DNA from: Candidatus Amoebophilus sp. 36-38
GTDB lineage: Bacteria > Bacteroidota > Bacteroidia > Cytophagales > Amoebophilaceae
NCBI GenBank assembly: GCA_001897825.1
Contig: MKUM01000066.1
Coordinates: forward strand, 8,687 to 72,686
DNA: 64,000 nucleotides
Direction: 5' to 3'
Positions 10,660 through 54,927 of this stretch are shown here, one piece after another. The notes under the pieces are model-generated. The model did not search any database, was not told where the DNA came from, and worked only from the letters and a program-made list of their open reading frames with translations. Positions within the stretch are counted from its first letter, which is position 1. The number at the start of each line of letters is the position of its first letter. Position numbers and translations under genes: made by a program.

Positions 10660-10693
10660 ATTTTAGTTAATAAATAATAAAATATAGTTCACC

Positions 10694-11236: not shown

Positions 11237-11241
11237 TTTGT

Positions 11242-11940: not shown

Positions 11941-11976
11941 TAGACTAATGTTAATTATTTGAATAGTTACTTTTAA

Positions 11977-12402: not shown

Positions 12403-12439
12403 ATATGTATTTTATATTAAGGAATGGTAAACGGTTAGC

Positions 12440-13000: not shown

Positions 13001-13036
13001 AAAAATTTATTAGCTTTCGATCCCTTCGTATCAGGG

Positions 13037-13240: not shown

Positions 13241-13310
13241 GGGTGGAGAGACTCGAACTCCCAGCCAATGGTTTTGGAGACCACTACTCTGCCAATTGAG
13301 CTACACCCGT
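13238..13310 (-). tRNA. tRNA-Trp (anticodon CCA)
   Basis: Hand-folded cloverleaf. Acceptor ACGGGTG/CACCCGT, anticodon loop CTCCAAA, T-loop TTCGAGT. Confidence 0.9.
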
Positions 13311-13414
13311 ATGGTTAATCTCCAATCCGATTTGCTAATTTATGCAAGAGTTCTGTACAACCAAAAATTATATTAAATCGTTTGAACTAATCATTGAATA
13401 AGCTATCCAATTTT

Positions 13415-14602
13415 TTAGTCCAGTATTTCGATAATTTGTCCTGCACCTACCGTTCTACCTCCTTCGCGTATAGCAAACCTCAAGCCTTTTTCCATAGCTA
13501 TTTCATTGATCAATTCTATTTCTATAGCTATATTATCGCCAGGCATTACCATTTCCACGCCTGTTGGAAGTTTAACTTCTCCAGTAACGTCAGTAGTTCT
13601 AAAATAGAATTGAGGTCTATACTTGTTGAAGAACGGCGTATGTCGACCTCCTTCTTCTTTTGACAACACATATACTTCAGCTTTAAACTTGCGATGTGGT
13701 TTTACAGAACCAGGCTTACATATAACCATTCCACGGTGTATTTTCTCTTTGTCAATACCTCGTAGCAAAAGACCTACGTTATCGCCTGCTTCTCCTCTAT
13801 CAAGAAGTTTTCTAAACATTTCTACACCTGTTACAGTAGAAGTCAAATTTTTTGCACCCATCCCTATGATTTCTATAGAATCTCCTACTTTGATAATTCC
13901 TCGCTCTATTCTACCAGTTGCAACTGTACCACGACCAGTGATAGACATGGTATCTTCTACTGGAAGCAAGAAGTCACGATCTACAAGCCTTTGAGGTAAT
14001 GGAATATAATTATCTACAGTATCCATCAGTTGTTGCACTTTTTCTTCCCACTCTGGTTCACCATTTAGTGCTCCTAAGGCCGATCCACGAACAACAGGTA
14101 TATTAGCCCCATCAAACTTGTACTTATTTAGCAAGTCTCTTACCTCATCCTCAACCAAATCGATTAGATCTGGATCATCTACAGCATCTACTTTGTTTAA
14201 AAAAACAACGAGATAACGAATACCTACTTGGGAAGCAAGTAAAATATGCTCTCTTGTTTGTGGCATAGGACCATCTGTAGCAGCTACCACCAAGATAGCG
14301 CCGTCCATTTGAGCAGCACCTGTTATCATGTTTTTTACATAGTCTTGGTGACCTGGGCAATCCACGTGGGCATAGTGCCTAGTTTTTGTCTCATACTCTA
14401 CGTGAGCAGTATTAATCGTAATCCCCCTTTCTCTTTCTTCAGGAGCATTGTCAATAGAGCTAAATTCTCGTATTTGAGCCAAACCTTGCTTTGACAAAAC
14501 TTTGGTAATAGCAGCAGTCAAGGTTGTTTTTCCGTGGTCTACGTGACCAATTGTACCTATATTAAGATGCGGTTTTGAACGATCAAAAGTTTCTTTTGCC
14601 AT
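13415..14602 (-). CDS. tuf: Elongation factor Tu
   Basis: 395 aa. [15 protein letters not shown] and NKVD GTPase motifs. Confidence 0.99.
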
Positions 14603-15812: not shown

Positions 15813-16202
15813 TTAATCTTTCTCTGCTATAAAATAACCTGGTGCTCCTTGTTTATATATCCATTCTTCTTTGTTGTTTAAGATTTTATCTATTTTCTCT
15901 TTATTTAGCAAAATATGTGAATTTTCCCATTCATTACTTTTTTGGCCTTTTATTTCAAATCCTATATATTCATACATACCCAAATTACATTCAGAAAATA
16001 AATTAACAACTTGGTTTTTTAATATCATAAAATCAGAATCATTAATGCGATAATTCTCTGGATGTTTACCAATTCCACCTTCATTTGTTATAAGTTCGAT
16101 TCCTTTTTCTATTTCTAAAAAATATGGTATTAGCAAAATAAAAGTATACTCACCTGTTTCTTCTATCTCTTCTAAAACATATTTTTGAAAATCACTCAGC
16201 AT
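15813..16202 (-). CDS. Hypothetical protein; putative immunity protein of the orphan C-terminal cassette (by position)
   Basis: 129-aa ORF starting 8 nt after the stop of the orphan cassette. No recognisable motif. Confidence 0.45.
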   Translation of the reverse strand: MLSDFQKYVLEEIEETGEYTFILLIPYFLEIEKGIELITNEGGIGKHPENYRINDSDFMILKNQVVNLFSECNLGMYEYIGFEIKGQKSNEWENSHILLNKEKIDKILNNKEEWIYKQGAPGYFIAEKD

Positions 16203-16209
16203 ATTTATT

Positions 16210-17148
16210 TTACTGTAATGTTGGGTTATTTTTTAAAGGAATTCTCTCCCATTTTTCATAGCCTCTTTTGAGATACGTACCCCTTTTTACACCAATAATA
16301 TTAGTACTATCTTTTAATTTTGATGCATTAACCTCTATAACTTTAATTACATCGGATTTATTAGTAGGATTTGTTGCTTTAAAACCAAGTTTGCCCTTCT
16401 TAAGACTTTCGATTTTCCAACCTTTTATCTGAAGGAACTCTTTAATTTCCGAAGGATATGCTCCTTTAAAAGTATTTTTATTATTTAGTTTAAATTTAAC
16501 TATGTTAGCCCCCTTACCCAGTTTACTTCCCCTTACCACCCTCTCTTCCACTTTCACCCCCTGCTGCACTTTCCTGAAAAACTGAGCTCCCTTACTAGCC
16601 CCTTTTGCTGCTCCTTTAAGAATTTCTCCTCCAAACAGAAATAGCACCATCTCTGCCATCATATAACTCAATATCCTATCTTGTCCTAGATAATAATTCT
16701 CTGCATCAAAGACAAATCGGAAAAGTTCTTGCTTCTTTTCTAGCTCCCGAACAGCTTGCATGCGCGCTTCATAGGCTATTGGATCTTCCCATGCTTGTTT
16801 GCCCTCATTAAATAAGATTTTGCAAATTTCTCCTAAGTTGGCACAACCCTCTTTAATACCCAACTTATCCTCCCATTTAACCAACGACTCTACTCCCTTA
16901 ACTCCTAATTTAGCTAATAATACAGGTAAATCTACTACAAGCGCTTTGCCCATATCATAGAAGCTTTCTCCAAAACCTTTTATTCCCGCAACAGCCCTTC
17001 TTATCCCACTGGGTCGGTTAGAGCAACCTAATAACTTACGTAATTCCTCCAGTAAATCCTTTTCGACTGTATCTGCTTCTCGATGAAATTTTTGAGCTTT
17101 CTGATCGGCTTCTTTTTTATATATGCCTTTTTCTGCCCCACCTAGGCC
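16210..17148 (-). CDS. Orphan, 5'-truncated toxin-like cassette: conserved pre-C-terminal block plus a distinct C-terminal domain
   Basis: The frame is open from 17148 and the first ATG is at 16953. Residues encoded by 16543-17148 align with aa 1338-1527 of the 1647-aa protein; the final 29 aa of that block are identical. The last ~110 aa are unrelated to the main protein's tip. Confidence 0.7.
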   Translation of the reverse strand, partial: GLGGAEKGIYKKEADQKAQKFHREADTVEKDLLEELRKLLGCSNRPSGIRRAVAGIKGFGESFYDMGKALVVDLPVLLAKLGVKGVESLVKWEDKLGIKEGCANLGEICKILFNEGKQAWEDPIAYEARMQAVRELEKKQELFRFVFDAENYYLGQDRILSYMMAEMVLFLFGGEILKGAAKGASKGAQFFRKVQQGVKVEERVVRGSKLGKGANIVKFKLNNKNTFKGAYPSEIKEFLQIKGWKIESLKKGKLGFKATNPTNKSDVIKVIEVNASKLKDSTNIIGVKRGTYLKRGYEKWERIPLKNNPTLQ

Positions 17149-17174
17149 TTAGATGTCAGCATAGTTTCCTCTGC

Positions 17175-17633
17175 TTATACCCTAAGTGCATCAGGTAGAG
17201 ACTTAGGCTTTAACCATAACGCCATGAGTTTGCCATCTTCTACAACAGCTACACAACCGCTAATAAATTCTACCGCCTCTTTCAATCGAAGTGGATCTCC
17301 TATGCATACACAACCCAATTCAATATTTATGTAAACAGGCCAATTGTCATCGTTAATTCCATACGCAAAACCATACTTTAAATCATGCTTAACTTTTAAA
17401 ATTCCAGTTTCAGATTTGGGAACTGTATAATCTGCTATCATTGATTTATCTAAACCACAAAAGCCACTTACGTGAATAATTTTATTATCCGAAACAGCCA
17501 AGCTAATTTTATTTAATATTAACTCCATATCCATTTTGCTTGCTATTTTTCCCATATAAAACGAACATTCTTCCGCAATATAAGTTAGCAAATGTTGCCG
17601 GATAATATTTCCGTATTCCACAATAAACTTCAT
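17175..17633 (-). CDS. Hypothetical protein; putative immunity protein of the 1647-aa toxin-like protein (by position)
   Basis: ORF track gives 17175-17663. Met at 17633 lies 8 nt after the upstream stop codon. No signal peptide. Confidence 0.5.
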   Translation of the reverse strand: MKFIVEYGNIIRQHLLTYIAEECSFYMGKIASKMDMELILNKISLAVSDNKIIHVSGFCGLDKSMIADYTVPKSETGILKVKHDLKYGFAYGINDDNWPVYINIELGCVCIGDPLRLKEAVEFISGCVAVVEDGKLMALWLKPKSLPDALRV

Positions 17634-17640
17634 ATATGAC

Positions 17641-20600
17641 TTATTTAAGTGCTTTAAAAACAAAGTGATAGATCATATTCGTTTCTGGATTAATACCTAA
17701 CTCAAATATACCTTTTGAACTTTGAAAAGAACCTAAAACTTTATAATTCATCCCACCTTTAAAATACATGTCAGGCACACCTTCACCTGACTTCATAATA
17801 TCAATAATAGTAGATGGGGAATTAATATATGGTCGTGTACCAATATTTTCGGCTACGGCCTTAGTAACTTTATATTCGCCCATTTTAATTGCTTCCTCAC
17901 CAATTTGTATACCTTTCCCCATTTCTCCCAGCTTTTTACCTTCTTCCATCAATTTAGCCCCTTCTGCAGCTCTCTCTACCAGTTTTACCCCCTCCACTAC
18001 CCCTTCCTCTACCTTCACCCCCTGCTGCACTTTTCTGAAAAACTGAGCACCCTTACTAGCCCCTTTTGCAGCTCCTTTAAGAATTTCTCCACCAAACAGA
18101 AATTGTATCATTTCTGCTCCTGCATATCCTATTATCCTATCTTGTCCTAAGTGATAATTCTCCGCATCAAATGCACGGCGGAAAAGATCTTGCCTCTTCT
18201 CAAGCTCTCGAACAGCTTGCATCCGTGCTTCATAGGCATCTGGGTCCTCCCAATCTTGCTTTACTTGATCAAACAAGGCTTTGCAGGCTTTTCCTAAGTT
18301 GATACACCCTTCCTTAACACCTAACTTATCCCCCCACTTAATTAATGACTCTATTTCTTTAACTTCTACTTTTGCTAATAATATGGGTAAATCTACTAAA
18401 AACGTCTTGCCTGTGTCATAAAAACTTTCTCCAAATCCCTTAATACCCTCGGCTGTTCTCCTTTCTCCTCTAGGTGTATTCGGACATCCTAATGCAGCAC
18501 GCAACGGCTCAAGTATTTCCTTTTTGATAGCATCTGCTTCTTGTTTATATTCATGTGCTTTAGCTACTCCAGCCGAAGTATTATAACGTGTTCCTGCAGT
18601 CCTAATTAACTCATCGTTACTTTTTTCTTCTGCTTCCCTTCTCAAAACAGCTACTTGTATACCTAGCTCTATACTTTGCTGATAAAGTGGATGGCTGTGG
18701 AAGTTGGCCAGTTGTTCTTTGTGTAAAGCTTTTAAAAGTACACTATTCGGATTTTGTTTTATATTTTCCTGGATCATCAGTAAGCCTTCTCTTAGTTTGG
18801 TAAAGTCAGCATCTTTTTCACAGGCCGTAAGATGAGCTTTAATCTCAGTTACTAATTTCTCCTTAACTGCCGCCTCTGTACTTTGCTTATCTTTTTCCTC
18901 CGCTTTCTTTTTAGCTTCTTCTTCGACTTTCTTCTTGGCTTCTTCCTCGTTTTTGCGAGCTTCTCCCTTTTCTTCTTCTTTCTCCTCCTGCTCCTTTTCT
19001 TTGCCCTTATCTTCATTTTCTCTATTAGTGGCTACATCTTCTTCCTTTTCTTTTCCAGCTCCTTCTTTGTCTTCTTTTTCACCCCTACTAGTCGTTCCTT
19101 CTTCTGGCAAAATCTCAACCTCTATATCTACGGTGTCTAATAACTTCTGCAAATCAACTTTGTTGTTCTCATCTGGGAAAAGCTCTTGTAGTTTTGATAG
19201 ATTTAACCCTGGCTTAGGAGCTATTGTTAGACTATATTTTTCTACAGGCTTTCCGGTCTTCCTAGCTATTTCCTCTTTCTCTTCATCTAGTTGCTTTTTA
19301 ATATACTGAGCGGCTTGCTGTAAAGCTGATTTGTACTTGGCTAATAATCCTTTTCTTTGGCTATAATCTCTAATGACCCCTTCTACTTGGCTTTTGGCTT
19401 CTTGCAAGTTGGCTAGGCTTCCACTTTTATCCTGCTTGGTCTGTAATTCTTCTAAACGCCTGATAGCTGCTTCTATCTTAGGTTTTACCTCTTTTGCTTT
19501 GGCAACAATCACAGCTTCATCTACTCTTTCATCTTGCAATCTATTGAGCTCTTCTGCTAAAGGGCCTATTTCTCTATTTCCTTCATCGATCAATGCATCA
19601 TAATTGGCTTTATCTTGGTAACTCTCAAGTATTTCTGCTACTTTTTTATATCCTTTTTCAAATTCTTCCAGGACTTGTTTTAGTGACGATCTGCTAATAA
19701 AGCTATACTTTTCATATGACTTTACTATGGTTTCATAAGCTTTAAACTGCTCTTGAGCCCTCAGACCTTCCTCTAAGCTATTTATTTTGAGGTGTCCAAA
19801 TTTTTCTTGAACCTCATCTAACAGTTTATCCCATTCTTTTCTAATCTTGGTTTCTTCTGCTTTCTTTTCTTTTTCTAGCTTATCTAACTTTTCTTTTTGT
19901 TCATTAATAATTTGTTCAACCTCTTTGATAATCCCTCTTAAATTTCCTATTATTTTATCTCGATTATGTTCATATCTTCTTACTCGTTCTATCATCTCTT
20001 CGAGCTTGTCTTTGAATTTATTTGCTTCTTGTATAGTCGCCAATGGATCATTCCCTGACTTAGCCAGCTCTCCTGTCCTAGCTCCTGCTCGGTCAACTTC
20101 CTCATTGATATTTTTAATGAAGATTTTATGCTCTTCTAATTTAATTTTCTCTTCCATCTCCTTCTCCATACCCAACAAATAATCTAAATTCTCTTTTTTA
20201 TCTTGCTTAGTTTTATAATCTCTTAAACGTTGGATAACTTCTTGTAGTTTTTTTCTAAACTTGTTTCCTTCTTCTACAATTGCCGCTGAATTGGTTCCTT
20301 CTTTTATTAATTGGTTAACTTTCTCTATTGCTTTTTCCAACTCTTTATTGCTTCCCTCAACAAAAGCGTTATAATTCATTAAATCTATAGCGGCTAATTT
20401 TAAAGGCTCGCTACTTTTTAGCTTAAAATTTATTCTAGTTGCCTCACTATCCTGCATCCCTCTTCCTTTACCTACAATTACTGCTTCCATAATTTCCAAA
20501 AATTTTTCTATGGATGCGGTTTCATTATCAGGAAATACAGCCTCAAATTCTTGATAAGAAACTATGTTCTTGCCCTCTTTAGGACGCACTTCTACATCAT

Positions 20601-22584
20601 AACTTTCTACTGGGTAGTCAAACAACCTAGCTAACTCTGCTCCCCTGGTTTGAATATATTGTACCGCTTGCTGAGCTGCAAATTCTGCTACTTTTTTAAA
20701 GCCTGGTTTTACGATTGTCTTTCTCTTCTCAAACCTTGCAATTATTTTGGTGAGCTCCTCGTATGCTTCCTTTAATCCACTTATTTGTAATTTCTTAGCT
20801 TCGTAGCTTGGTTCATATTTCTCATCTTCCTTTTCTAATCGTTTCTCATATAAGGGAACATACATTTCCTCACAATATAAGCTTGCGGTAAATTCAGGGT
20901 TAGTTCCATAGCCTTCTATATCCTTTATGGCAGAGCTTATCTGAGACTTTATCTCTCTTGCTTTTACTATTACCTTATCGATATCTTCATGATTATCAGG
21001 ACTATCGTTATGAAGCTCGCTTAATTTGTAGAGCACATCCGCCTCTTGTTGGATACTTCCCTCTATTTTCTTTAAAAAAATACGCCACCCCTCTAACTTT
21101 TTTGCTGAATTGTATAATTCCCAGAGTTCCTCCACATCTCGGCTCCAACTACTTGAATCACATGTAAGTCTACGATATTCTTTCCGTAATGTGCCGTATT
21201 CATCTTTTAAATTTCCTTCTTGTTCATAAATCTTGTCTATAGCCATTTTTACTTCCTTCAGAAATTCTTCTATTTCTTTTAGGCCATTTAAAGATATTGA
21301 ACCTTTGCTAGTCTTGTCTTTATATTTATCAATTACTGCTTTCTTAATATCGCTAATCTCACTATAAATCCTACTATTCCATGCAGCTATTTCTTCTTTA
21401 AAACGTCTGCGTGCTTCAGCTTCTGCTTGATGTCTATCTTCCCATTCTTTGTCTTTTTGTCGTTTCCATGCTTCCATTTCTTGGTGCACTTGGGCTCCTC
21501 TAATATCAGACGAGTACTCGCTTCTTGGAGTAGAATTAGAAGTCCTAGTTGATTGAGAAGAAGTTGGGAAACTAGTAGATTGAGACGAACTATTGTTAGA
21601 AGTAGATTTGGGAGTTCTAGGATGTTTTCCCTTGCCTGGACATACCCATTTGCCAGGATTATCTGGATCAGGCCTCATTTCATCTTCCCCAAATTGACAA
21701 CCTCCTTTCCCATCTTGCTTCTTTTTGCTACCCCCCTGTTTTTTCATTCCTCCCAATCCTCCCCTCTTCCCTATATACACATACCCTTTCCCATTAGCTC
21801 CTCGCTCAGGAAATATTACTTCTATGTGGGCTTGCTGTCCCACTACACTATAATTTTTAAGCTTTGATATATTAAAGCCTGGCTCTACATAAACTGGTAA
21901 GCTTAGACTGGGTCTAGTAAATCCTATGAATAATTGCTCGTTGACAACAGCTATTAACTGATCTTCTACAAGCATTAGATTTAGTTGGTGGCCTCCTTGG
22001 GCTGTAAACGTTAGACAATCTAGCTCTTCTATTAGCAATTCAGGTGTATCCGCATGAGAAGATATTTGAGGAGAGGCAAACACTTTCGTTTGCCTTGTCC
22101 GTTTATGTTGAGCTTGCTTTCTATGAGCATCTAAGTTGTTACATTTGCCTAATCTTGCAGATGGCTTAGGCTTAATAGTTAATTCTTCCTGCTGTTTGGG
22201 CTGACTACTGGGAAGTATGTTCCGCTGTTCCCCTACTAATGTTGTTGGCTCATTCTTTATAATAATAGACGACTTTGCATTGGTTATTGGTCTTTGGGAT
22301 ACAATGGGCACTGCACTAGGGTTAGCTTCAATCAACGCCAACCTTTTATCTTCAGTAAGCGATATGGATGGAATTTCAGGAAGTTCTCGTGTACGTTTTG
22401 CTATAGTGCTATTGTCTTTAGAATGCTCTAGCTTGTTCCGCTGCTTATTAACTTTTTTTTCTACATCTACTAGTTCTTGCCCGCTAGGCACGTTTGAGTT
22501 AATGCAACTAGTTAGGACTTGGCTAACAAGCAAGATAAAAGCGATAATTCTCTTAGAAACCGTAATCTGATTAGGCTTACACAT
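17641..22584 (-). CDS. Giant coiled-coil lipoprotein with polymorphic-toxin-like architecture
   Basis: Lipobox LLVSQVLTSC, then the shared domain (aa 186-282), Ser-rich linker, about 900 aa of repetitive coiled coil and an E/K-rich tract. The conserved block ends VKVEE (aa 1527) and is followed by a 120-aa variable C-terminal domain. Confidence 0.75.
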   Translation of the reverse strand: MCKPNQITVSKRIIAFILLVSQVLTSCINSNVPSGQELVDVEKKVNKQRNKLEHSKDNSTIAKRTRELPEIPSISLTEDKRLALIEANPSAVPIVSQRPITNAKSSIIIKNEPTTLVGEQRNILPSSQPKQQEELTIKPKPSARLGKCNNLDAHRKQAQHKRTRQTKVFASPQISSHADTPELLIEELDCLTFTAQGGHQLNLMLVEDQLIAVVNEQLFIGFTRPSLSLPVYVEPGFNISKLKNYSVVGQQAHIEVIFPERGANGKGYVYIGKRGGLGGMKKQGGSKKKQDGKGGCQFGEDEMRPDPDNPGKWVCPGKGKHPRTPKSTSNNSSSQSTSFPTSSQSTRTSNSTPRSEYSSDIRGAQVHQEMEAWKRQKDKEWEDRHQAEAEARRRFKEEIAAWNSRIYSEISDIKKAVIDKYKDKTSKGSISLNGLKEIEEFLKEVKMAIDKIYEQEGNLKDEYGTLRKEYRRLTCDSSSWSRDVEELWELYNSAKKLEGWRIFLKKIEGSIQQEADVLYKLSELHNDSPDNHEDIDKVIVKAREIKSQISSAIKDIEGYGTNPEFTASLYCEEMYVPLYEKRLEKEDEKYEPSYEAKKLQISGLKEAYEELTKIIARFEKRKTIVKPGFKKVAEFAAQQAVQYIQTRGAELARLFDYPVESYDVEVRPKEGKNIVSYQEFEAVFPDNETASIEKFLEIMEAVIVGKGRGMQDSEATRINFKLKSSEPLKLAAIDLMNYNAFVEGSNKELEKAIEKVNQLIKEGTNSAAIVEEGNKFRKKLQEVIQRLRDYKTKQDKKENLDYLLGMEKEMEEKIKLEEHKIFIKNINEEVDRAGARTGELAKSGNDPLATIQEANKFKDKLEEMIERVRRYEHNRDKIIGNLRGIIKEVEQIINEQKEKLDKLEKEKKAEETKIRKEWDKLLDEVQEKFGHLKINSLEEGLRAQEQFKAYETIVKSYEKYSFISRSSLKQVLEEFEKGYKKVAEILESYQDKANYDALIDEGNREIGPLAEELNRLQDERVDEAVIVAKAKEVKPKIEAAIRRLEELQTKQDKSGSLANLQEAKSQVEGVIRDYSQRKGLLAKYKSALQQAAQYIKKQLDEEKEEIARKTGKPVEKYSLTIAPKPGLNLSKLQELFPDENNKVDLQKLLDTVDIEVEILPEEGTTSRGEKEDKEGAGKEKEEDVATNRENEDKGKEKEQEEKEEEKGEARKNEEEAKKKVEEEAKKKAEEKDKQSTEAAVKEKLVTEIKAHLTACEKDADFTKLREGLLMIQENIKQNPNSVLLKALHKEQLANFHSHPLYQQSIELGIQVAVLRREAEEKSNDELIRTAGTRYNTSAGVAKAHEYKQEADAIKKEILEPLRAALGCPNTPRGERRTAEGIKGFGESFYDTGKTFLVDLPILLAKVEVKEIESLIKWGDKLGVKEGCINLGKACKALFDQVKQDWEDPDAYEARMQAVRELEKRQDLFRRAFDAENYHLGQDRIIGYAGAEMIQFLFGGEILKGAAKGASKGAQFFRKVQQGVKVEEGVVEGVKLVERAAEGAKLMEEGKKLGEMGKGIQIGEEAIKMGEYKVTKAVAENIGTRPYINSPSTIIDIMKSGEGVPDMYFKGGMNYKVLGSFQSSKGIFELGINPETNMIYHFVFKALK

Positions 22585-22774: not shown

Positions 22775-25285
22775 TTAATCTTCTTTTATATCAGCCAGTA
22801 ATTTCTTAACAGCTTTTGTCTTGGGCATTCTTTGTAGCGCATGGTAGGCTGCTGAACGGATACGTACCATCTTCTCCTCTTTTAAAATATGTTCCAATAG
22901 TACGAATGTCTCTTCTTGTTGAGCTAGATTTCCAATTACACAGACATAGTCTACTAAATAGGTTAGCAAAGACTCGTATCCAAGATGCGTATAAAAATCG
23001 GTAGTCTTTTTTTTGAGCCACTCGTACTTATCCGTTTTTTTAATATGCGTATAATATTTTGCCAGACTGGTAATCATGTGGATATCCTCATATTCTTCGA
23101 AACTTAGTAAAATAGTGTCTTTGATGCTTCCTTGCTCCTCATTACTATACATACCATAGGCATATAACGCAGCACTTGCTACACGATAAGAAGAGTCCGC
23201 TAAGCTTTTTTCATAAACATCTAAATAGCTATCAGGATTTGGTAGAGAACTCAGTGTGTTGATTGCCGCCTCACGAACCCAACTATGTGCATCTTGAATA
23301 GTAAGATCTGTAAGAATATTCTCTATAATCGTGTGGTATTTTCCCTGTTGGTGGTAGCCTTCAAAAGCTTCGATGGCCATTATTTTGAACATCCAATAAC
23401 TATCGTCTTCTAACACCTCTTTGAAAAAGTCTTCATAATCAAAACGATCTATTTTAGCAGTATTGAAGTAATTGATCACTTCATATTTAGCAAAGAAATC
23501 TTCATAATGACTATATAGATACCGATATGCTTGGGTAGTAGTTTGGGGATGTTTCAGTTCAGCTACTAACAGGCTATTTCTATCTATATACACCAGTTCT
23601 GGTCGTTGAGAAACAGACCAACTAAATTCTTGATAAGGTTTATCGATCGTTATATGATGTCGCTCTTTCACTCCTTTTACCCAAACATCAACGGCTACAG
23701 GTAGTCGATAAATAGGGCTTGGAGCACTTTGTTTTTGCCATACTTTCAAAACTAATTTATCATTTGCATAAGTATGTTCTGTCTGAAGTATCGGGTGTCC
23801 TGGAGCTAGGAACCATTGATTGAAAAACCAGTTAAGATCTTGACCGCTCACTTCTTCAAATACTTTTCGAAGCTGATGAATATCTGTAGAAGAAAAGGCA
23901 TATTTTTTAAGATATTGACTCAATGACTGTAAGAAGGCCTCCTCGCCCAAATATGTTTTGAGCATGTGTAAGATAAGCGCACCTTTGTGATAACTATGGC
24001 TATCAAACATTTCAATGGGAGAAATATAATGATCCCTGATCACGCTAACTTGCCTTAATTGAGCTTCCTTTAAATAGTGTTCGATACTTTTTAATATAAG
24101 TCGATCTCTTTCATAGCTACCATGTTTATGTCCGTACCATAAGTGGGACCCTAACGTAGCAAAAGCTTCATTCAGAGTAAGCTGGCCCCAGGACTCACAA
24201 GTAACTAAATTACCAAACCAGTGATGAAATAATTCATGGGCAATGATCTCTTCCCGGTCAATGTTATCTAACAGGGCCCGATCATCTCCTTGGATGTTTT
24301 CAGTAAGAACAACTGCCGTCGTGTTTTCCATAGCTCCCACCATATAATCACGGACGATCACTTGGCTATATTTAGGCCATGGATAGGGGTAGTCAAGTTT
24401 GTCTGAAAAAAAATCTAACATCTCCGTGGTATGCTTAAATATCGTTAATGCCTGTTTTTCATAGGCGGGTTCTACATAGTAAGTAACAGGAATTTCGTTC
24501 CAGTCATCTTGTATTTCAGCAAACTCTCCTACAGCTAACATAAATAAATAGGGTGCATGCGGGAGATCCATCCGCCAATAGTCTGTACGGGTTTGATCAT
24601 CGTTGAGGGTCGTGTAAACCAGCGTGCCATTAGACAAGGTTTTGAAGTTGTCTTGTACAGTAATGTAGGTCTCTTGGGTACATCGTTGATTAGGTGAATC
24701 GATCGTAGGAAACCAATATGAGTTGGTATTAGGCTCACCTTGCGTCCAAATTTGTTGCAGCTTATTTGGGCCTGTTCCACGAGCATGGATAAAACACAAT
24801 CCTTGGTTGCTGCCCAATTTAAAGCTATCTTTTGCCCCCTGCTGATTAGATTGCGTGGTATAATTGATCTCTACCAGGATAGCATCTTCTTTCGTATATA
24901 AGCGATCTAGGTCAATGTTAATTTGCTGGTTATTATAGGTATAAGCAGCTTCTTTTTTCTCTTCGTTGGTCAATAGGACAACGCTATGAATAATCAAATC
25001 ACGTGCATCGAGTAACAACTGTTTTTGTGGATAAAAGTGCGGCTTAACCTGGATGGTGGCTATACCATGTAGTTGTTGGGTATCCCAATCAAATTTCACT
25101 TCTAGCTTCGTATGTATCAGATCATGTAGCTTGGTGGAAGCCGGTTGATAAGGGGAATTGTTTTGCTGGTAAACAGGCTTGGCAGGTAAGTTTGAAATAC
25201 CGACCACTTCGCTTTTAAATACTACACAAGCAAAGCAGCCGAAAAATAAGATGGTTAAGTATCTCTTGGTTAATTGTTTGAACAT
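22775..25285 (-). CDS. pepN: M1-family aminopeptidase N
   Basis: 836 aa. GAMEN exopeptidase motif and HELFHHWFG(X18)E zinc site. N-terminal signal peptide. Confidence 0.9.
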   Translation of the reverse strand: MFKQLTKRYLTILFFGCFACVVFKSEVVGISNLPAKPVYQQNNSPYQPASTKLHDLIHTKLEVKFDWDTQQLHGIATIQVKPHFYPQKQLLLDARDLIIHSVVLLTNEEKKEAAYTYNNQQINIDLDRLYTKEDAILVEINYTTQSNQQGAKDSFKLGSNQGLCFIHARGTGPNKLQQIWTQGEPNTNSYWFPTIDSPNQRCTQETYITVQDNFKTLSNGTLVYTTLNDDQTRTDYWRMDLPHAPYLFMLAVGEFAEIQDDWNEIPVTYYVEPAYEKQALTIFKHTTEMLDFFSDKLDYPYPWPKYSQVIVRDYMVGAMENTTAVVLTENIQGDDRALLDNIDREEIIAHELFHHWFGNLVTCESWGQLTLNEAFATLGSHLWYGHKHGSYERDRLILKSIEHYLKEAQLRQVSVIRDHYISPIEMFDSHSYHKGALILHMLKTYLGEEAFLQSLSQYLKKYAFSSTDIHQLRKVFEEVSGQDLNWFFNQWFLAPGHPILQTEHTYANDKLVLKVWQKQSAPSPIYRLPVAVDVWVKGVKERHHITIDKPYQEFSWSVSQRPELVYIDRNSLLVAELKHPQTTTQAYRYLYSHYEDFFAKYEVINYFNTAKIDRFDYEDFFKEVLEDDSYWMFKIMAIEAFEGYHQQGKYHTIIENILTDLTIQDAHSWVREAAINTLSSLPNPDSYLDVYEKSLADSSYRVASAALYAYGMYSNEEQGSIKDTILLSFEEYEDIHMITSLAKYYTHIKKTDKYEWLKKKTTDFYTHLGYESLLTYLVDYVCVIGNLAQQEETFVLLEHILKEEKMVRIRSAAYHALQRMPKTKAVKKLLADIKED

Positions 25286-26786: not shown

Positions 26787-27131
26787 GTTGATAGTAACAA
26801 TCAAATTTTTAGAATGGTCGCATAGATATATTTTAAAATTTTGCACATAGGATAATACGACTTACCCTCATTTTCTTTGACATATACGTAGCAACCCTTC
26901 GTTTATTTTTAAAATTTGGTTCATTGAGAGTCCTATTTAACTTTAATTTATCTTAAAGCTGATACGGAAAAATCAACAAATGCTAAATAATATTTTCATT
27001 AAAATATTGATTGAATACATCTATCAAATTAGAAATATCTATTGGCCACATAGCATCCCCTCTCTTTGTTGTATTGCAACCAACAATTAAACAGTTAATT
27101 GTGTACCCAATATAAGTCAAGTCATAATTCC

Positions 27132-28583
27132 ATGAAAAATCTATACAACCCTTTCAGCAAGTATCAAAGATTAATTGCACAGTTATTATTATTCGTTTTG
27201 GTTTTGGAAAGTTGTGATTATTCCTCCACTCCTCTTCATCTCCAATCAAAGTTAGGAAAGCATGATGAAGAAAAGGAAACAGGGGAGCTATATACGAAAG
27301 AAGTAATAGATGGTTTATCTAAACATTTAGAAGCATTTATAGAAGCAAATAAAAATACAATATCCTACGAAGCGCAAATAGCCTCTGCTGAAAAGCGGAT
27401 AGACTTTTATACAAGTCAAATTGCATCAATAGATCCAAAGCAAAAAATAAAAAATGAAGAACAAATTCTACCTCTCCAAAAACAATTAAATAACTACAAC
27501 CAACAGAGTAGAAAATTGAAAGAACAAAGAGCAGAAATCCAACGTAAACTCGATGCGCTAACAAAAGAAAAGGAAGTGCTAGATACCGATGAAGATATCT
27601 GTTATTGGGAACAAGATTTTACCACCGCCTGGGAGAAGGGGGGAATGGAATGCTTGAAGGTAAATTTGAGTATCAAGGAATTCCTTTTAGTAAAGTAGAA
27701 AGATGTAATGTAGAACCACAGCGTGGAACTAACGTAGGTGAATTTCTTGATAAAAGTGAAAGCATAGACAAGATGAGGGGTAGTTATCGAGTAATTTATA
27801 AGCTTGATACAAAATTTATGAAATTTGCGACATCATCGAAATCACCCTACTCAAAAGATAATGATAGATTTAGAAGAGAAATAATAAAGCAAATAAAAAT
27901 CCGGATTTATATTAAAAAGAAAGACCAATCTAATAACAAGATACGCATTGAACAGATTAATCAAGAGTTATTGCAACAACAAAGGCACATAGAAGCATAT
28001 AATCAAGAAATAGAAGAAGTAGAAAATTCTCGTAAAACCACCGAGGCATTAATTGACCATTATACTACTGATTTAGAAAATCAAAAAACCAGATTTTAAA
28101 TAGAAAAAAATATTTGAAAGACGAGCTTCGCAGAATAGAACGAGAAAAACAAGAAGCAATAGCAAAAAAGGCAGAACAAGAGAAAATAAAAGAAAATGCA
28201 GCAGCATATTTAAGCCAAAGAGAAGGCTTAATGTCTTCGATTTGCAACTCAATTTCACATAACATAGTCCAGGCAGATAAATTTGAGAAATATTTCCAAG
28301 ATTATAAGGCAATCATAGAACAGGGCCCTGATGCTATTCTTCCTTACTTGAAACAGACTGTCCAGCACTTTTAGACGACCCCATAAGCCAAACTATAATG
28401 GAAGACGCTGTTATAATTCCCTGTGGCCATACTTTTAGCCAACGAGAATTATTAGACTGGCTAAAAAGGGAAAAAAGCTGCCCAACCTGTAGAAAGTCTG
28501 TAACTGAAGATGAGGTTATACCTAACTTAATTTTACGAGAAATTATAGAAAATGTTAAAAACGGTAAAAAAAAGGATACTTAG
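27132..28583 (+). pseudogene. Coiled-coil lipoprotein with C-terminal U-box (E3 ubiquitin-ligase-like) domain, split by three frameshifts
   Basis: Fragments are 27132-27698 (frame 0), 27605-28099 (frame 2), 28072-28374 (frame 1) and 28332-28583 (frame 0). The U-box motif LLDDPISQTIMEDAVIIPCGHTFSQRELLDWL..CPTCRK..VIPNLILREII begins upstream of the ATG of the last ORF. Confidence 0.7.
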
Positions 28584-49026: not shown

Positions 49027-52000
49027 TTATATTTTCCACGCAATATCTTGAAGCGATTGATAAACAATATCCTGTAGTTTGACACGAATATTCTGTTCAG
49101 CCAACTTATTATTAGACTCTGTAGGATAAGTTCTATTAGATAGGAATATATATATTAGTTCGTGTTGTGGATCTACCCAAACTGCTGTGCCTGTAAAACC
49201 TAAGTGCCCATAGGTAGAAGCAGAAGCATACCTAGAAGTATTAGGTTTATATTTCATTTCTGGTTTATCCCATCCAAGTCCTCGTCGGTTATTTTTAAAG
49301 GCCTTACTAGCAAACCGTTGGATAATATCTTTTTTTAAATATTGTTTACCACCATAATAACCGCCTTGTAAGTTCATTTGTAAGATAACTGCTAAGTCAT
49401 GTGCATTACTAAAAAGACCTGCATTACCTGCTACTCCTCCGCAAATAGCAGCTTGTGGGTCATGTACGATGCCATGGATAGGGGTAGTTCTAAAAAAATC
49501 ATATTCTGCTGTAGGAGCTATCTGTTGTAAACTAAACCTTTCCAGTGGATTATAGCCAATTAGGTGAGCTCCTAAGGATTTGTAAAATTTACCAGATAGG
49601 AAAATTTCCATGGGCTGCTGCAACAACTTTTCTATTAGCTTATGCATCATATGAAAACTCACGTCATTATAGTGAAGGGTATGCGGTCTGAATAATTTCT
49701 TTTTCTTTACAGGAGAGGAAATATAAACATCCCACATGAGTTCCTTTAGCAGATGAGGAGTATATAGGTCCATACCTATCCTATTCGGATAACTAGCAGA
49801 GGGCATATTACTGAACAATTTTCTACTTAATTTGGTATCTTTTTGAAATAAAATATTCCTTATCACACTAGCATCTAGCAATCCAGCCTGGTGAGCTAGA
49901 ATGGCCTTGATAGTCAGATTTTTTTTATTAGTGGAACGCAATTCCGGTAAGTAAAAAGATATTTTCTTACTTATATCTAACTTTTCTTGACCTACCAAAT
50001 ACATAAGTATTTGTAAAGGTCCTATTACTTTGGTTATAGAAGCTATATCATAGAGTGTTGTATTTGTAACCGGATTTTTTTTTGCATAGGTGTGATAGCC
50101 ATAGGGCTTTTCAAAAACTATTTTACCTCTTCTGGCTACTAATACTTGGCAACCTGGTATAACTTCTTCTACAATAGCTTTTTCTACAACCTTATCAATA
50201 CCTGCTAAGACCCCGCTATCCATTTGCACAGCCTCTGGCAACGTATAGCTAAGCTTTTGTAAGCTTTTCGTTCTAATACCCCACTCTGACTTCCAAGCAT
50301 TTGGAATACTAACCGGTAATGTTCCTACAGCTGGTAAGGCTCCAAAAATTATTTGTGGAACTACTTGTTCAGCTACAGAATCCTCTTGGTAAGCTGCTAT
50401 AAGATGATTCATATTTTGGAATAACTCTAAACTATAAACATTGCCAAAAACTATCAACAAAACTTTGGTTTGGGTGTTCTGTAGGTTAGTTAAAAATTGT
50501 AGTAACTCTGGTTGTAACCCAAACTTATTGGCTCTATTACCAGCTATATCATGTATATCTACAATTACCAATGTGTACTTTTCTAATTCATCTGCCAATT
50601 TCCGAAGCAATATAGTATTTAAGGAAGTCCTGTTAAGTCTATAATGCGAGACAGGAGCATATTGAGCTAACATCTGACTAAATATATTTGCTGACTTATC
50701 AGTAGGTAATATTTGTTTTTCAGGGAGTTCTTGAGAACCAGAAGTAACGGGCTGTTTGACAATAGAGAGAGATGCAATTTTATGCTTAGATAGTTTCGTA
50801 ATAGGAATCAAATTATCCTGATTGGCTACTACTGTAATAGCTTGCTCAAATAACTGTTGCTTAAGTAGCTGTGCCTGGGGAGTATTTATCTTTTCATACA
50901 AGCCATCTATTTCTACAGGCTTCCATTCATGCAAATGCAATTCATATTTTACTGCCAGAATCTTTTTAACTTTTTGTTCTATCAACCTTTTATCTAACTG
51001 GCCTTTTTCGATAGCTGCTTTGATTAACGCAACAGCTTTGGGGACATCTTCGGGAAAGAGCAATATATCATTACCTGCTTGCAAAGCTAGTAAATCCACT
51101 TCACCCGGCTGATAGTATTTGGTAACAGCTTTCATATTAAGTGCATCGGTAAACACTAGTCCCTCAAATCCTAATTTTTTTTTCAAAAGTTGTGTAACAA
51201 CATTGGAGGACAGCGATACAGCACGGTTAGCTGTAGTATCATAGGCTGGCAAGTATACGTGAGAAACCATAATTCCACCAATACCAGCAAGGATAGCCTC
51301 TTTAAATGGATAAAGCTCTATATTTTCCAATCTACTAGTATCACAGGAGATAGTAGGTAGATCATCATGCGCATCTTTGCTAGCATCTCCCATGCCAGGA
51401 AAATGTTTAGCTACCGCCAAAATACCATTATCCTGTAGACCTTGGATATAGGCTAATCCTTTACTAGTTACGGCTCCTTTGCTATCCCCAAACGATCTAC
51501 TACCTATGCCTGGATTAACTGGATTAGTATTGATATCCATTACAGGAGCTAGGTTGATATGTACACCTATCAGCTTCATCTGACGCGCTATTTCAGCTCC
51601 CATATTATAAATAAGCTGCTTATCTTGAATAGCACCTAACGTCATTTGTCGAGGGTAACTAATTGTATTGGTTAATCTCATACCCAACCCCCACTCAGCA
51701 TCTATGGCAATAAGTAAAGGTGTTTTTGCTGGCTGTTGATATCTATTAGTAAGTTTTGCCTGGCTAATAGGGTCACCTTGAAAAAAAATAAGTCCGCCAA
51801 TATGATACTGGCGTATCAAGTTTTCTATGGATACGTGATGTTTTTCATCTCGATTAGAATAGGCTGCTACCATAAAAAGTTGCCCAATTTGTTCTTCTAA
51901 AGAAAGTCGCTCAAAATGATAGTCAATCCAATCTTGTTTAGTTAGAGAAGCAACTTGAGCAGGAGAATTATTAAAAGCAAAAGCAACTGCAAACAAAAGT

Positions 52001-52044
52001 ATAAGGGTAGTTACAAATAACAGGTGAAAATTTTTCATACTCAT
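49027..52044 (-). CDS. Glycoside hydrolase family 3 (NagZ-like) / serine hydrolase (beta-lactamase-family) fusion protein
   Basis: 1005 aa. Signal peptide, GH3 motif KHFPGMGD, and a C-terminal half with an SxxK motif (ASITKVIG). Confidence 0.85.
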   Translation of the reverse strand: MSMKNFHLLFVTTLILLFAVAFAFNNSPAQVASLTKQDWIDYHFERLSLEEQIGQLFMVAAYSNRDEKHHVSIENLIRQYHIGGLIFFQGDPISQAKLTNRYQQPAKTPLLIAIDAEWGLGMRLTNTISYPRQMTLGAIQDKQLIYNMGAEIARQMKLIGVHINLAPVMDINTNPVNPGIGSRSFGDSKGAVTSKGLAYIQGLQDNGILAVAKHFPGMGDASKDAHDDLPTISCDTSRLENIELYPFKEAILAGIGGIMVSHVYLPAYDTTANRAVSLSSNVVTQLLKKKLGFEGLVFTDALNMKAVTKYYQPGEVDLLALQAGNDILLFPEDVPKAVALIKAAIEKGQLDKRLIEQKVKKILAVKYELHLHEWKPVEIDGLYEKINTPQAQLLKQQLFEQAITVVANQDNLIPITKLSKHKIASLSIVKQPVTSGSQELPEKQILPTDKSANIFSQMLAQYAPVSHYRLNRTSLNTILLRKLADELEKYTLVIVDIHDIAGNRANKFGLQPELLQFLTNLQNTQTKVLLIVFGNVYSLELFQNMNHLIAAYQEDSVAEQVVPQIIFGALPAVGTLPVSIPNAWKSEWGIRTKSLQKLSYTLPEAVQMDSGVLAGIDKVVEKAIVEEVIPGCQVLVARRGKIVFEKPYGYHTYAKKNPVTNTTLYDIASITKVIGPLQILMYLVGQEKLDISKKISFYLPELRSTNKKNLTIKAILAHQAGLLDASVIRNILFQKDTKLSRKLFSNMPSASYPNRIGMDLYTPHLLKELMWDVYISSPVKKKKLFRPHTLHYNDVSFHMMHKLIEKLLQQPMEIFLSGKFYKSLGAHLIGYNPLERFSLQQIAPTAEYDFFRTTPIHGIVHDPQAAICGGVAGNAGLFSNAHDLAVILQMNLQGGYYGGKQYLKKDIIQRFASKAFKNNRRGLGWDKPEMKYKPNTSRYASASTYGHLGFTGTAVWVDPQHELIYIFLSNRTYPTESNNKLAEQNIRVKLQDIVYQSLQDIAWKI

Positions 52045-52845: not shown

Positions 52846-54927
52846 TTAAGCTATACTATCCTTGATAGAACCGAGAATTTTGCTTATTCCTTCAACTTTA
52901 GCTTGTGCCTCTGCATGTCCGTGACCAGCTGCTTTTTGAATCCATTCAAATGCCTTTTGTTCATCCTTTGCTACTCCCATTCCATTTGCATACCTCACAC
53001 CTAGGTTATATTGTGCATCGACATGTCCTTGCTCAGCAGCTTTTTGATAGTATTCAAATGCCTTTTGTTCATCCTTTACTACTCCATTTCCATTTGCATA
53101 CCTCACACCTAGGTTATATTGTGCTTCGACATGTCTTTGATCAGCAGCTTTTTGGTAATATTCAAATGCTTTTTGTTCATCCTTTTCGACTCCTTTTCCA
53201 TTTTCATACATCCAGCCCAGATTATATTGTCCCTGGACATGTCCTTGATTTGCTGCTTTTTGGTAGTATTCAAATGCCTTTTGTTCATCGTTTGCTACTA
53301 CTCCATTTTCATTTTCATACATCCAGCCCAGATTATATTGTGCATAGGCATCTCTTTGATTTGCTGCTTTTTGATAGTATTCAAATGCCTTTTGTTCATC
53401 CTTTGCTACTCCTCTTCCAGCTTGATACATCATACCTAAATTATTTTGTGCCACTGCAAGTCCTTGATCCGCTGCTTTTTGATAATATTCTACTGCCTTT
53501 TGTTCATCCTTTGCTACCCCTCTTCCAGTTGCATATCTCACACCCAGCTTATTTTGTGCCACTGCAAGTCCTTGATCCGCTGCTTTTTGATAACATTCTA
53601 CTGCCTTTTGTTCATCTGCTGCTATCTCACTTCCATTTTCGTATATCCAGCCCAATAAATTTTGCGCCTTTGCATATCCTTTATTTGCTGCTTTTTCAAT
53701 CCAGAAGAATGCCTTTTTTTCATCCTTTTTGATCCCGTTCCCTCCTTTAAACATCCAGCCCAGATTATATTGTGCCTCGACATGTCCTTGATTTGCTGCC
53801 TTAGCATACAGCTTTACAGCTTTCCCATAATCTACGTATACCCCTTGTCCTTTTTCATGCATCAAACCTAACTTAAAAGTAGCCTCAGATAAATCTAATT
53901 TATAAGCTTTTCTGTAATAGGTTAAAGCCTCTTTATAATATAAATAATTTTTTGGATGTGTAAAGTACATCTCTCCTAACTCGAGATAAGCGCAGCTAAG
54001 CGAGTGCTTATTTTGATGACTTGACCGATTAGACTTAATCCTTTTAATCCTTTGCGTACAAGAATCAAATGTGTCGGACATCTCGGAAGGAATAACTTGC
54101 ATATTTCCCAAATAATCTCTGCAAAGAGTATGTTCTGAAAGAATTAACTCATTAAATTCTCTGCAAACTCGCCGAACATTCAAAAGGGTTGATGAATGTA
54201 AAAAGGAAAAAATGCACAGTTTAATTTCGGGAGGAATTCCTATAAGTGTAGAACAGATAATAGAGTTTCCCTCACAAGATTTCTCATTAGAAGATGAAAA
54301 TCCTTTATCAGTTGATTGATCTGCCCCATCCTTAGAAGTTTTCTCATCTATTAACAAATGTGGATGTTTATTTGGCTTGTCTGAATTAGATTGTTCTATT
54401 GTTAATTTATCTTTTTTTTCTCCTTCTTTATCTTTTTCTTTATCTTCATCTTCTCTTTTTCTTTTCATTCCTCCTAGGAGCCCTTTCTTACAAATAGATA
54501 TGCTAGCCGGTTGTCCACTTTGGGATAAATTAAAATGAATAATTCTTTGCTGTTCTTCTTTATTTAAATGTGACAGCTGTGCTACATCTATATCTGGAGC
54601 TATATTAACAGATAAATTAGTATACGTTTTACTAAAGCCTTCTGGTATATTCATTTCTACATCTGCTTGTAACTTTTCATCCTGTTCATGAAAAATAACT
54701 AGATGCCCTCCCTTTGCTGTAAGTTCTCGACCTGCTAACTCTTTAATAGCAGTTGCATTATTTGATTTTAGATCGTCACGTTCATTAGGTGAACTCGCGA
54801 TGAAGTCTATGGATTCTTTTACTTCTGGGGCAGAAAAATTTGAAAAATCACTGCAACTTTGTAAAAACAAACTTACAAGTAATACAGCGGCTAATAGTTT
54901 CTGATTTAATCTGTAATCTCTTTGCAT
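52846..54927 (-). CDS. Lipoprotein-leader protein with shared N-terminal domain, F-box and about 10 Sel1 repeats
   Basis: Lipobox LLVSLFLQSC. aa 62-156 are homologous to aa 186-282 of the 1647-aa protein. F-box IPPEIKLCIFSFLHSSTLLNVRRVCREFNELI at aa 228-268. The 36-aa Sel1 units have the pattern (E/D)AQYNLG.MY..G.GV.KDEQKAFEYYQKAA.QG. Confidence 0.85.
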   Translation of the reverse strand: MQRDYRLNQKLLAAVLLVSLFLQSCSDFSNFSAPEVKESIDFIASSPNERDDLKSNNATAIKELAGRELTAKGGHLVIFHEQDEKLQADVEMNIPEGFSKTYTNLSVNIAPDIDVAQLSHLNKEEQQRIIHFNLSQSGQPASISICKKGLLGGMKRKREDEDKEKDKEGEKKDKLTIEQSNSDKPNKHPHLLIDEKTSKDGADQSTDKGFSSSNEKSCEGNSIICSTLIGIPPEIKLCIFSFLHSSTLLNVRRVCREFNELILSEHTLCRDYLGNMQVIPSEMSDTFDSCTQRIKRIKSNRSSHQNKHSLSCAYLELGEMYFTHPKNYLYYKEALTYYRKAYKLDLSEATFKLGLMHEKGQGVYVDYGKAVKLYAKAANQGHVEAQYNLGWMFKGGNGIKKDEKKAFFWIEKAANKGYAKAQNLLGWIYENGSEIAADEQKAVECYQKAADQGLAVAQNKLGVRYATGRGVAKDEQKAVEYYQKAADQGLAVAQNNLGMMYQAGRGVAKDEQKAFEYYQKAANQRDAYAQYNLGWMYENENGVVANDEQKAFEYYQKAANQGHVQGQYNLGWMYENGKGVEKDEQKAFEYYQKAADQRHVEAQYNLGVRYANGNGVVKDEQKAFEYYQKAAEQGHVDAQYNLGVRYANGMGVAKDEQKAFEWIQKAAGHGHAEAQAKVEGISKILGSIKDSIA
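52900..53800. repeat. Tandem 108-bp (36-codon) Sel1-coding repeats with high unit-to-unit DNA identity
   Basis: ttcaaatgccttttgttcatcc recurs at a 108-bp period (e.g. 52944, 53052, 53160). Confidence 0.85.

Follow-up and report, generated by a model that had tools for sequence, protein, structure and literature searches.

The stretch of 64,000 nucleotides from Candidatus Amoebophilus sp. 36-38 analysed here (assembly GCA_001897825.1, contig MKUM01000066.1, forward-strand positions 8,687 to 72,686; hereafter the window, in whose numbering all positions are given) codes for a giant toxin-like protein and for a protein with an F-box and Sel1 repeats, and raises the question of why these two, with different predicted functions, share an N-terminal segment. 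The initial annotation of the window had pointed to a common domain of about 95 amino acids (aa), placed behind a lipoprotein signal in both proteins, and had suggested a sorting, surface-display or translocation module that it could not assign to a named family. Our analysis indicates that the segment is probably a genuine globular domain of about 100 aa, forming the constant N-terminal part in a large family of lipoprotein-type effectors and toxins that is specific to the Amoebophilus lineage, in which it would serve as a handle for sorting, anchoring or presentation. The module is almost certainly that described in 2012 as Amoebophilus prodomains 1 and 2 (APD1 and APD2), and in this respect the finding is a rediscovery; new beyond the 2012 work are the homology of two subtypes, the fold prediction and a conserved G-L-x-G-G tail. 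The two genes and the two copies of the domain are the following.

17641..22584, minus strand: putative giant lipoprotein-type polymorphic toxin/effector gene, 1647 aa (GenBank OJW69340.1, BGO68_02755, by exact-sequence match)
21733..22032, minus strand: shared domain, giant copy, subtype b, aa 185-284 (hidden Markov model (HMM) score 93 bits; BLASTP; AlphaFold mean predicted local distance difference test (pLDDT) 82.4)
52846..54927, minus strand: putative F-box/Sel1 lipoprotein-type effector gene, 693 aa (open reading frame (ORF); Pfam)
54451..54753, minus strand: shared domain, F-box copy, subtype a (majority type), aa 59-159 (HMM score 139 bits; AlphaFold pLDDT 82.3)

Comparison of the two N-terminal regions by BLASTP aligned positions 185-280 of the giant protein with positions 61-154 of the F-box protein at 29% identity over 96 aa with 2 gaps (E=2e-8), and tblastn of the giant segment against the six frames of the window retrieved the F-box copy at E=8e-7. 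No third copy of the domain was detected in the window by tblastn or by a family HMM applied to all six frames, nothing else scoring better than E=0.1. Furthermore, HHalign comparison of 100 F-box-like domains (type a) with 13 giant-like domains (type b), both window sequences having been left out of the input, gave a probability of 99.7% and E=1.6e-26 over 93 columns. A low HHalign probability had been named beforehand as a reason to abandon the shared domain, and the value obtained lies clearly at the opposite end of the scale; on both the pairwise and the profile measure, the domain of about 95 aa common to the two proteins stands. As judged from these alignments, the F-box-like and giant-like subtypes are homologous, which is new relative to the 2012 description; the F-box protein belongs to the subtype with most members, whereas that of the giant toxin is divergent. 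The peptides quoted in the initial annotation were found exactly, and aa 186-282 of the giant protein do correspond to nucleotides 21739-22029; for the F-box protein the peptide (aa 62-156) was right and its coordinate was not, the correct span being 54460-54744 and the end given earlier, 54742, falling 2 nucleotides short. The anchors listed there (TA.GGH, L.A.V, GF, L.V, QQ and G.LGGM) coincide with the most conserved columns of the family. The alternative, by which two low-complexity N-termini resemble each other through chance or composition, can draw on the pairwise identity of just 29%; it retains practically no probability and was rejected in view of the E-value of the pair, the 270 relatives described below, the HHalign result and the confident, reproducible folds.

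The distribution of the domain was established by an exhaustive profile search, in which a profile of the two window segments only was run against 1.84 billion representative proteins and the matches were counted as clusters defined at 50% identity. At E<=1e-3 this search recovered 270 clusters, of which 141 also passed E<=1e-10; the proteins have 135-2445 aa, and the match in them is nearly always situated at about aa 50-150. A word-indexed protein search yielded 0 proteins with the two-sequence profile and 1 with a 44-sequence profile, and is uninformative next to the clusters recovered exhaustively. A lipobox leader is present in 133 of the 150 best members, with a median gap of 27 aa between Cys and domain; its consensus reads M-K-R-x-Y-x-L-x-Q-Q-(L/Y)-I-A-x-(I/V)-L-L-(I/V)-S-L-(F/C)-L-Q-S-C, and the Cys is residue 25 in 89 of these 133 proteins. 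All members with an organism name come from Amoebophilus, a genus of obligate intracellular bacteria, namely Aasi_0393 and Aasi_0451 (U-box), Aasi_1679 (OTU) and several proteins of Amoebophilus metagenome-assembled genomes (MAGs); the others are unnamed metagenome proteins and one entry of a eukaryote proteome set. The domain had no match in Pfam (E up to 10), NCBIfam or the PDB sequences.

It should be added that the eukaryote-set relative (P0146, 1340 aa, source ‘eukprot’) has the domain at aa 558-655, and could be either symbiont contamination of a protist assembly or the result of gene transfer. A metagenome scan provided ten further loci, all of which open with the same leader and domain. 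At three of the ten, two family genes stand side by side: on opposite strands (L003), as a tandem pair whose second gene is without the leader (L004), and as a type-b-like gene ahead of a type-a one (L006). Because family genes often adjoin in this manner, local duplication and recombination are suggested as the source of the family expansion.

Payloads behind the domain were surveyed with Pfam in 110 family members. Ankyrin (23), Sel1 (21) and U-box (19) were counted alongside leucine-rich repeats (7), F-box (6), AIG1/GIMAP-like/RsgA-type GTPases (5-6), Pkinase, Lipase_3 and NB-ARC (3 each) and patatin (2); there were also many tetratricopeptide repeat (TPR) proteins and one kinase/AAA/histidine-kinase giant, and an OTU payload is that of Aasi_1679. 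Tox-ODYAM1 (PF15642) was identified on two large members, with a best E=3.8e-221, and on none of the scanned type-b proteins, which are mostly without any Pfam match. The initial annotation had proposed that enrichment on effector-like proteins would support a role in delivery, and that occurrence mainly on ordinary periplasmic enzymes of free-living bacteria would argue against it. The C-termini proved overwhelmingly eukaryote-like or toxin-like, behind the lipobox leader in the proportion given above, no ordinary periplasmic enzyme was found among the family members, and those with a name are all from Amoebophilus. The enrichment supports the proposed N-terminal module for sorting, surface display or translocation, and from it we infer the delivery or anchoring role itself.

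The module is composed, in order, of a leader of the Sec/signal peptidase II (SPase II) type ending in L-Q-S-C, the Cys, a short Pro/Gln-rich tether, the α+β domain, the G-L-x-G-G tail, a charged disordered linker and the payload. In the two window proteins these parts are as follows.

22504..22584, minus strand: giant protein, predicted signal peptide and lipobox MCKPNQITVSKRIIAFILLVSQVLTSC with Cys27, read from the translation
22033..22503, minus strand: giant protein, low-complexity K/Q/P/S-rich spacer of ~157 aa from lipobox to domain (translation; alignment of type-b N-termini)
21745..21762, minus strand: giant protein, tail motif G-G-L-G-G-M, aa 275-280 (family consensus G-L-(M/L)-G-G-(M/G))
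21634..21699, minus strand: giant protein, subtype-b extension CQFGEDEMRPDPDNPGKWVCPG, aa 296-317, beyond a short basic linker (also in P0010 and other type-b members)
54853..54927, minus strand: F-box protein, predicted signal peptide and lipobox MQRDYRLNQKLLAAVLLVSLFLQSC with Cys25, the canonical family leader
54754..54852, minus strand: F-box protein, tether of 33 aa from the predicted lipidated Cys to the domain (translation)
54466..54483, minus strand: F-box protein, tail motif G-L-L-G-G-M, aa 149-154, with a K/E/D-rich linker next (aa 155 to ~200)
54127..54237, minus strand: F-box domain, aa 231-267, the first payload domain past the linker (Pfam PF12937 E=2.8e-9, PF00646 E=2.5e-5)

The lipobox pattern ([LVI]-x-[GAS]-C in the first ~30 residues, preceded by a positively charged n-region and a hydrophobic h-region) was found in both proteins, as KRIIAFILLVSQVLTS-C27 in the giant and KLLAAVLLVSLFLQS-C25 in the F-box protein. 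The leader of the latter (…LLVSLFLQSC25) is that of a textbook family member, and the leader type of the giant (…KRIIAFILL…TSC) recurs among type-b relatives. The domain had been placed just downstream of the lipobox in both proteins; this is accurate for the F-box protein, whose domain starts at about aa 59 behind Cys25, and inaccurate for the giant, whose domain starts at about aa 185 behind Cys27 with the long spacer in between. No domain signal was obtained for this spacer with the family HMM in the window. Some type-b relatives possess a degenerate extra copy of the domain at the site of the low-complexity spacer of the giant; in P0011, P0044, P0060, P0096 and P0104 the degenerate copy directly follows the lipobox (E ~1e-6 or weaker), and a well-conserved second copy is found ~200 aa beyond it.

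Type-b proteins are laid out as the leader …KRIIAFILL…TSC, a spacer of 130-160 aa, a domain with the motifs GFSR, FPE and GKGYVYIG, and a Cys-containing extension, C.FG.D..R.DPDNP.KWVCPG; moreover, they have central and pre-toxin regions in common with the window giant, whose aa 8-322 are colinear with aa 3-317 of the relative P0054 at 35% identity. The earlier statement that everything beyond the linker is unrelated is correct between the two window proteins and incorrect within the giant subtype, where this extension (giant aa 296-317) is conserved. The charged linker, also noted earlier, turned out to be general: K, R, D and E make up 38% of the 40 residues after GG versus 27% elsewhere in the proteins, and hydrophobic residues 22% versus 33% in the rest of the proteins. 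As regards the two window proteins themselves, nine Sel1 repeats were assigned by Pfam to the F-box/Sel1 protein, the gene of which has an identical copy on Joint Genome Institute (JGI) metagenome contigs, and the giant protein had 0 matches in both Pfam and NCBIfam.

Structure prediction, another check proposed by the initial annotation, was done with AlphaFold2 in two independent runs, one with an alignment of 44 sequences headed by the giant copy and one with 18 sequences headed by the F-box copy. Both models were confident (mean pLDDT 82.4 and predicted template modelling score (pTM) 0.72 for the giant copy, pLDDT 82.3 and pTM 0.70 for the F-box copy) and agreed in the succession of elements, which starts with a short helix at the N-terminus and goes on with four β-strands in consecutive hairpins, two short helices and two strands. 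Foldseek searches with both models against the PDB and with one against BFVD returned nothing at E<=1e-3 and a template modelling (TM) score of ~0.3 at best. The domain is thus predicted to have an α+β fold with no recognisable solved relative.

No element of the family is conserved as strongly as the tail G-L-(M/L)-G-G-(M/G), which is present in 132 of 146 domains (G at -5 in 127 and L at -4 in 117 of the 132) and accounts for three of the alignment's six nearly invariant columns. In the F-box model pLDDT falls below 50 at model residues 94-103, which comprise the motif and the residues beyond; in the giant model the motif lies within a 10-residue block averaging pLDDT 66, and values below 50 are found at model residues 100-103 (MKKQ, right after the motif). 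A motif that is conserved and yet predicted to be disordered, located at the boundary of domain and linker, could be a site of recognition or processing. A ubiquitin-like (β-grasp) domain was considered because of the GG tail. Ubiquitin-fusion precursors have a C-terminal …L-R-G-G that is cut by deubiquitinases, and the present module resembles them in being a domain of ~80-100 aa that ends in hydrophobic-x-G-G before a fused protein, in a genus rich in mimics of the ubiquitin system. The predicted fold differs from theirs: the order β-β-β-β-α-α-β-β is not that of a β-grasp, no ubiquitin-like protein was among the top 50 Foldseek PDB matches (best E ~1), and the idea was rejected. Double-glycine bacteriocin leaders, the substrates of C39 peptidases, have 15-30 aa, no Sec signal and cytoplasmic processing; with its Sec leader and a domain of ~100 aa the family does not fit this logic, and this candidate was rejected as well.

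A named family does exist for the module, contrary to the initial annotation, although it has no entry in Pfam or NCBIfam. Two lineage-specific N-terminal domains of A. asiaticus, APD1 and APD2, were described by Zhang et al. (2012, Biol Direct 7:18; PMC3482391) as ‘two distinct types’ and were reported in front of OTU, lipase, nuclease, F-box, U-box, Ulp1, UBCH, GIMAP, STAND and other C-termini; the same authors proposed that the lipobox holds the effectors at the symbiont surface and that the prodomains provide anchoring or homotypic clustering (PMC3482391). Tox-ODYAM1, Tox-PLOTU, Tox-REase-8 and Ntox7 were tabulated as ‘T2SS (APD1)’, T2SS standing for type II secretion system (PMC3482391; Aravind et al. 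2012, PMC3417536), with Sel1 repeats in the APD1 fusions to Tox-ODYAM1 and Tox-PLOTU (PMC3482391). The present family agrees with APD1/APD2 in the genus, in the site past signal peptide and lipobox (to which the giant, with Cys27 and its domain at aa 185, conforms loosely), in the constant N-terminus with polymorphic C-termini, in payloads (F-box, U-box, OTU, GIMAP-type GTPase, STAND/NB-ARC, lipase, Sel1/ankyrin/TPR) and in the same idea of surface anchoring or clustering; the Tox-ODYAM1 fusion of APD1 likewise occurs here, on two members. It differs in that the published prodomains were considered distinct, whereas types a and b are clearly homologous, and in that the 2012 paper dealt with A. 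asiaticus 5a2 only, whereas the 270 clusters extend over Amoebophilus MAGs and metagenomes. Because the two family members with Tox-ODYAM1 are not among the type-b proteins scanned, APD1 most probably corresponds to type a; type b is possibly APD2. Our literature search found no later papers on APD1/APD2, and a transcriptome study of A. asiaticus from 2022 discusses eukaryote-like proteins without mentioning them (PMC8831229).

The 2012 authors named MAFB-N (DUF1020, of Neisseria MafB) and Microscilla-N (of Microscilla marina) as following an analogous principle (PMC3482391), and both are likewise lineage-specific constant N-domains on Sec-exported toxins with variable C-termini. They have no sequence similarity to the present domain, on which Pfam finds nothing even at E<=10, and their toxins are interbacterial and accompanied by immunity genes, whereas the majority of proteins with an APD are aimed at the host and are used in parallel. 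The second system to be compared is that of surface lipoproteins in Bacteroidota at large. Their lipoprotein export signal (LES), linked to the names of Lauber et al. 2016 and Valguarnera et al. 2018, is reportedly a short acidic motif at positions +2 to +6. The likeness lies in the phylum, the presumed surface exposure and a determinant situated directly past the lipidated Cys; the difference lies in the conserved element, which in the present family is a tether together with a folded domain of 100 aa. Since the canonical LES is absent from almost all leaders, another determinant would be needed if the proteins are surface-exposed, possibly the conserved tether or the domain.

In the reading that we favour, the leader would carry the protein over the inner membrane and the Cys would be lipidated, as expected from the sequence and from general knowledge of such leaders; the lipoprotein would then pass to the outer membrane and be displayed at the cell surface, where the tethered payload (F-box/Sel1, U-box, toxin tip and others) would face host targets directly. 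The constant domain would give all these proteins one handle for the route, whether by sorting to the surface, by anchoring or by homotypic clustering, and its G-L-x-G-G tail would be a candidate for recognition, or for any cleavage. Such a model is economical because within the host cytosol A. asiaticus is not enclosed by any host membrane (PMC8831229), so that an F-box or U-box at the surface already meets its targets. Several observations weigh against it. The domain of the giant is ~157 aa away from the lipobox, and a canonical LES (>=2 acidic residues at +2 to +6) was seen in 4 of 109 leaders, 35 having one acidic residue and 70 none, so that the known signal lends no support to surface exposure. 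Localisation, lipidation and processing of the members are predictions from their sequences, and the identity with APD1/APD2 is by description, resting on the organism, the place of the domain in the protein, the range of payloads and the connection with Tox-ODYAM1; if type b is APD2, then APD1 and APD2 are homologous, and otherwise APD2 would be something that our searches did not recover. It should also be added that scans of reference genomes gave no confirmed locus, though Aasi_0393 fits the pattern, and are uninformative for the family.

Among the competing explanations, we rank next the one in which the domain is a cleavable prodomain: a bacterial or host protease would cut at or after G-L-x-G-G and free the payload into the host cytosol, the protein thus being secreted and not tethered. 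We regard this as unlikely, albeit a serious contender, and it can coexist with anchoring as a later step. The exceptional conservation of the tail, the flexibility predicted at or just past it in both models and the hydrophilic disordered linker that comes directly next are all in its favour, as are the name ‘prodomain’, chosen by the original authors (PMC3482391), and the easier access that release would give F-box, U-box and kinase payloads to nuclear or cytosolic targets. On the other side, no protease partner has been identified, recognition by host deubiquitinases is improbable for a fold that is not ubiquitin-like, the payload of some U-box members begins ~8-15 residues past GG, domains often end in glycine-rich hinges that are not cleaved, and processing is deduced from sequence and models. 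Somewhat less credible is a dedicated export signal, by which leader, tether and domain together would be recognised by an outer-membrane translocon, similar to the Slam or LES pathways, that flips lipoproteins, and would not be an anchor. The entire leader is unusually conserved, including its n-region and the residues following the Cys (GGGFDNNPLIP / SNFSN..IP), more than 100 different payloads stand behind one front end, and the want of a canonical LES calls for some other determinant; furthermore, Amoebophilus has neither a type III nor a type IV secretion system (T3SS, T4SS), and the substrates of its subtype iv type VI secretion system (T6SSiv) are unknown (PMC8831229). No candidate translocon was found, however, and the two window genes have no common neighbour; leader conservation could merely mirror a recent expansion of paralogues, and the variable spacer of the giant subtype speaks against a strict positional signal.

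A further explanation is purely evolutionary: the 5' module would be kept for its promoter, leader and start, payloads being fused to it by recombination of paralogues, and the domain would have no specific role. The constant N-terminus with a polymorphic C-terminus does resemble polymorphic toxins, and family genes often adjoin on metagenome contigs; yet the subtypes, at ~28-30% identity, have kept the same predicted fold and invariant residues, which indicates purifying selection on the protein and not mere DNA homology, and the two window copies have no similarity at the DNA level that could drive recombination. We hold this explanation to be improbable. The last candidate, a loading signal for the contractile injection system of Amoebophilus (T6SSiv, Afp-like), is very improbable indeed and was rejected because of the lipoprotein leader: that leader, of the Sec/SPase II type, exports from the cytoplasm, whereas contractile systems take on their cargo there. 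In favour of this candidate, N-terminal signals are frequent on the cargo of extracellular contractile injection systems, and the substrates of T6SSiv are unknown (PMC8831229). Our ranking thus descends from anchoring, presentation or sorting through the cleavable prodomain, the export signal and the recombination handle to contractile cargo, chance having been refuted. A composite of these ideas is conceivable as a long shot, ahead of the recombination handle and behind the export signal in our estimate: leader, tether, domain and G-L-x-G-G may together form a previously unrecognised delivery route of Bacteroidota endosymbionts, with lipoprotein export, flipping by a dedicated factor, a cut at GG and release into the cytosol. 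If true, this route would explain how more than 100 eukaryote-like proteins are delivered without T3SS or T4SS.

Returning to the anchoring and sorting reading, which is supported as far as computation allows, its interest lies in the fact that Amoebophilus and relatives have one of the densest known repertoires of eukaryote-like effectors (F-box, U-box, deubiquitinases, ankyrin, Sel1, kinases), for which one constant front end on hundreds of effectors is the most obvious handle on access to the host. A single HMM defines the list of candidate effectors. The idea dates from 2012 and the module still has no entry in the domain databases; annotations, those of both window proteins included, read ‘hypothetical protein’ because the module is missing from these databases and uncharacterised. 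The unification of the subtypes, the orphan predicted fold and the invariant GG tail with its predicted flexibility are modest additions that open the question to experiment, and a small, confidently modelled domain with a sharply conserved motif is well suited to mutagenesis, localisation and processing experiments.

The 3' end of the giant gene (15813-18411, minus strand) bears on the label ‘toxin-like’ that this protein had been given, with two features being concerned.

17980..18411, minus strand: putative pre-toxin region of the giant protein, aa 1392-1535, duplicated in the downstream orphan cassette
16210..16953, minus strand: putative orphan toxin cassette, 247 aa, with the pre-toxin region as in the giant and a different C-terminal tip

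Giant aa 1392-1535 match aa 2-145 of the cassette at 76% identity over 144 aa (E=5e-77). Each tip is trailed by a small ORF, 17175..17663 (which overlaps the stop of the giant) and 15813..16202, and these two are mutually unrelated. Neither the giant C-terminal tip nor the orphan cassette has a relative in Pfam or the PDB. By its gene order the region appears to have the classical layout of polymorphic toxins, comprising a putative toxin, an orphan cassette and candidate immunity genes, and this layout backs the label. Amoebophilus is reported to have ‘hardly any immunity proteins’ (PMC3482391), to which the immunity candidates of the giant locus may be an exception.

Other ORFs of the window have lipobox-like leaders and are without the shared domain. 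These are 27099-28099 (plus strand, …LLLFVLVLESC), 35209-36195 (plus strand, …LLAPIRCTC), 40995-41471 (minus strand, …LLLVIILSSNC) and 41663-43492 (plus strand, …LILVLNTEAC). ORF 35209 has a weak otubain (Peptidase_C65) match at E=1.6e-4. ORF 27099 has only 199 aa and a ‘LLESC’ leader of the kind that certain family members have; ORF 27605..28099 overlaps it, and ORF 27099 may be the remnant of a frameshifted gene. Immediately upstream of the F-box/Sel1 gene (55131-56537, minus strand) there are a 156-aa protein-kinase fragment, matching positions 13-152 of the 263 in the Pkinase profile, and a 229-aa protein consisting of Sel1 repeats only, which resemble the parts of a eukaryote-like kinase/Sel1 effector that has been split or is decaying. 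The window, with an overall G+C content of 37%, furthermore includes an aminopeptidase of the M1 family that has HEAT repeats (22775..25285), a fusion of GH3 and β-lactamase (49027..52044) and a standard housekeeping block of rpoC, rpoB, rplL, rplJ, rplA, rplK, nusG and tuf (1682-14602, minus strand), the RpoC of which clusters with that of A. asiaticus 5a2 at an identity of at least 90%.

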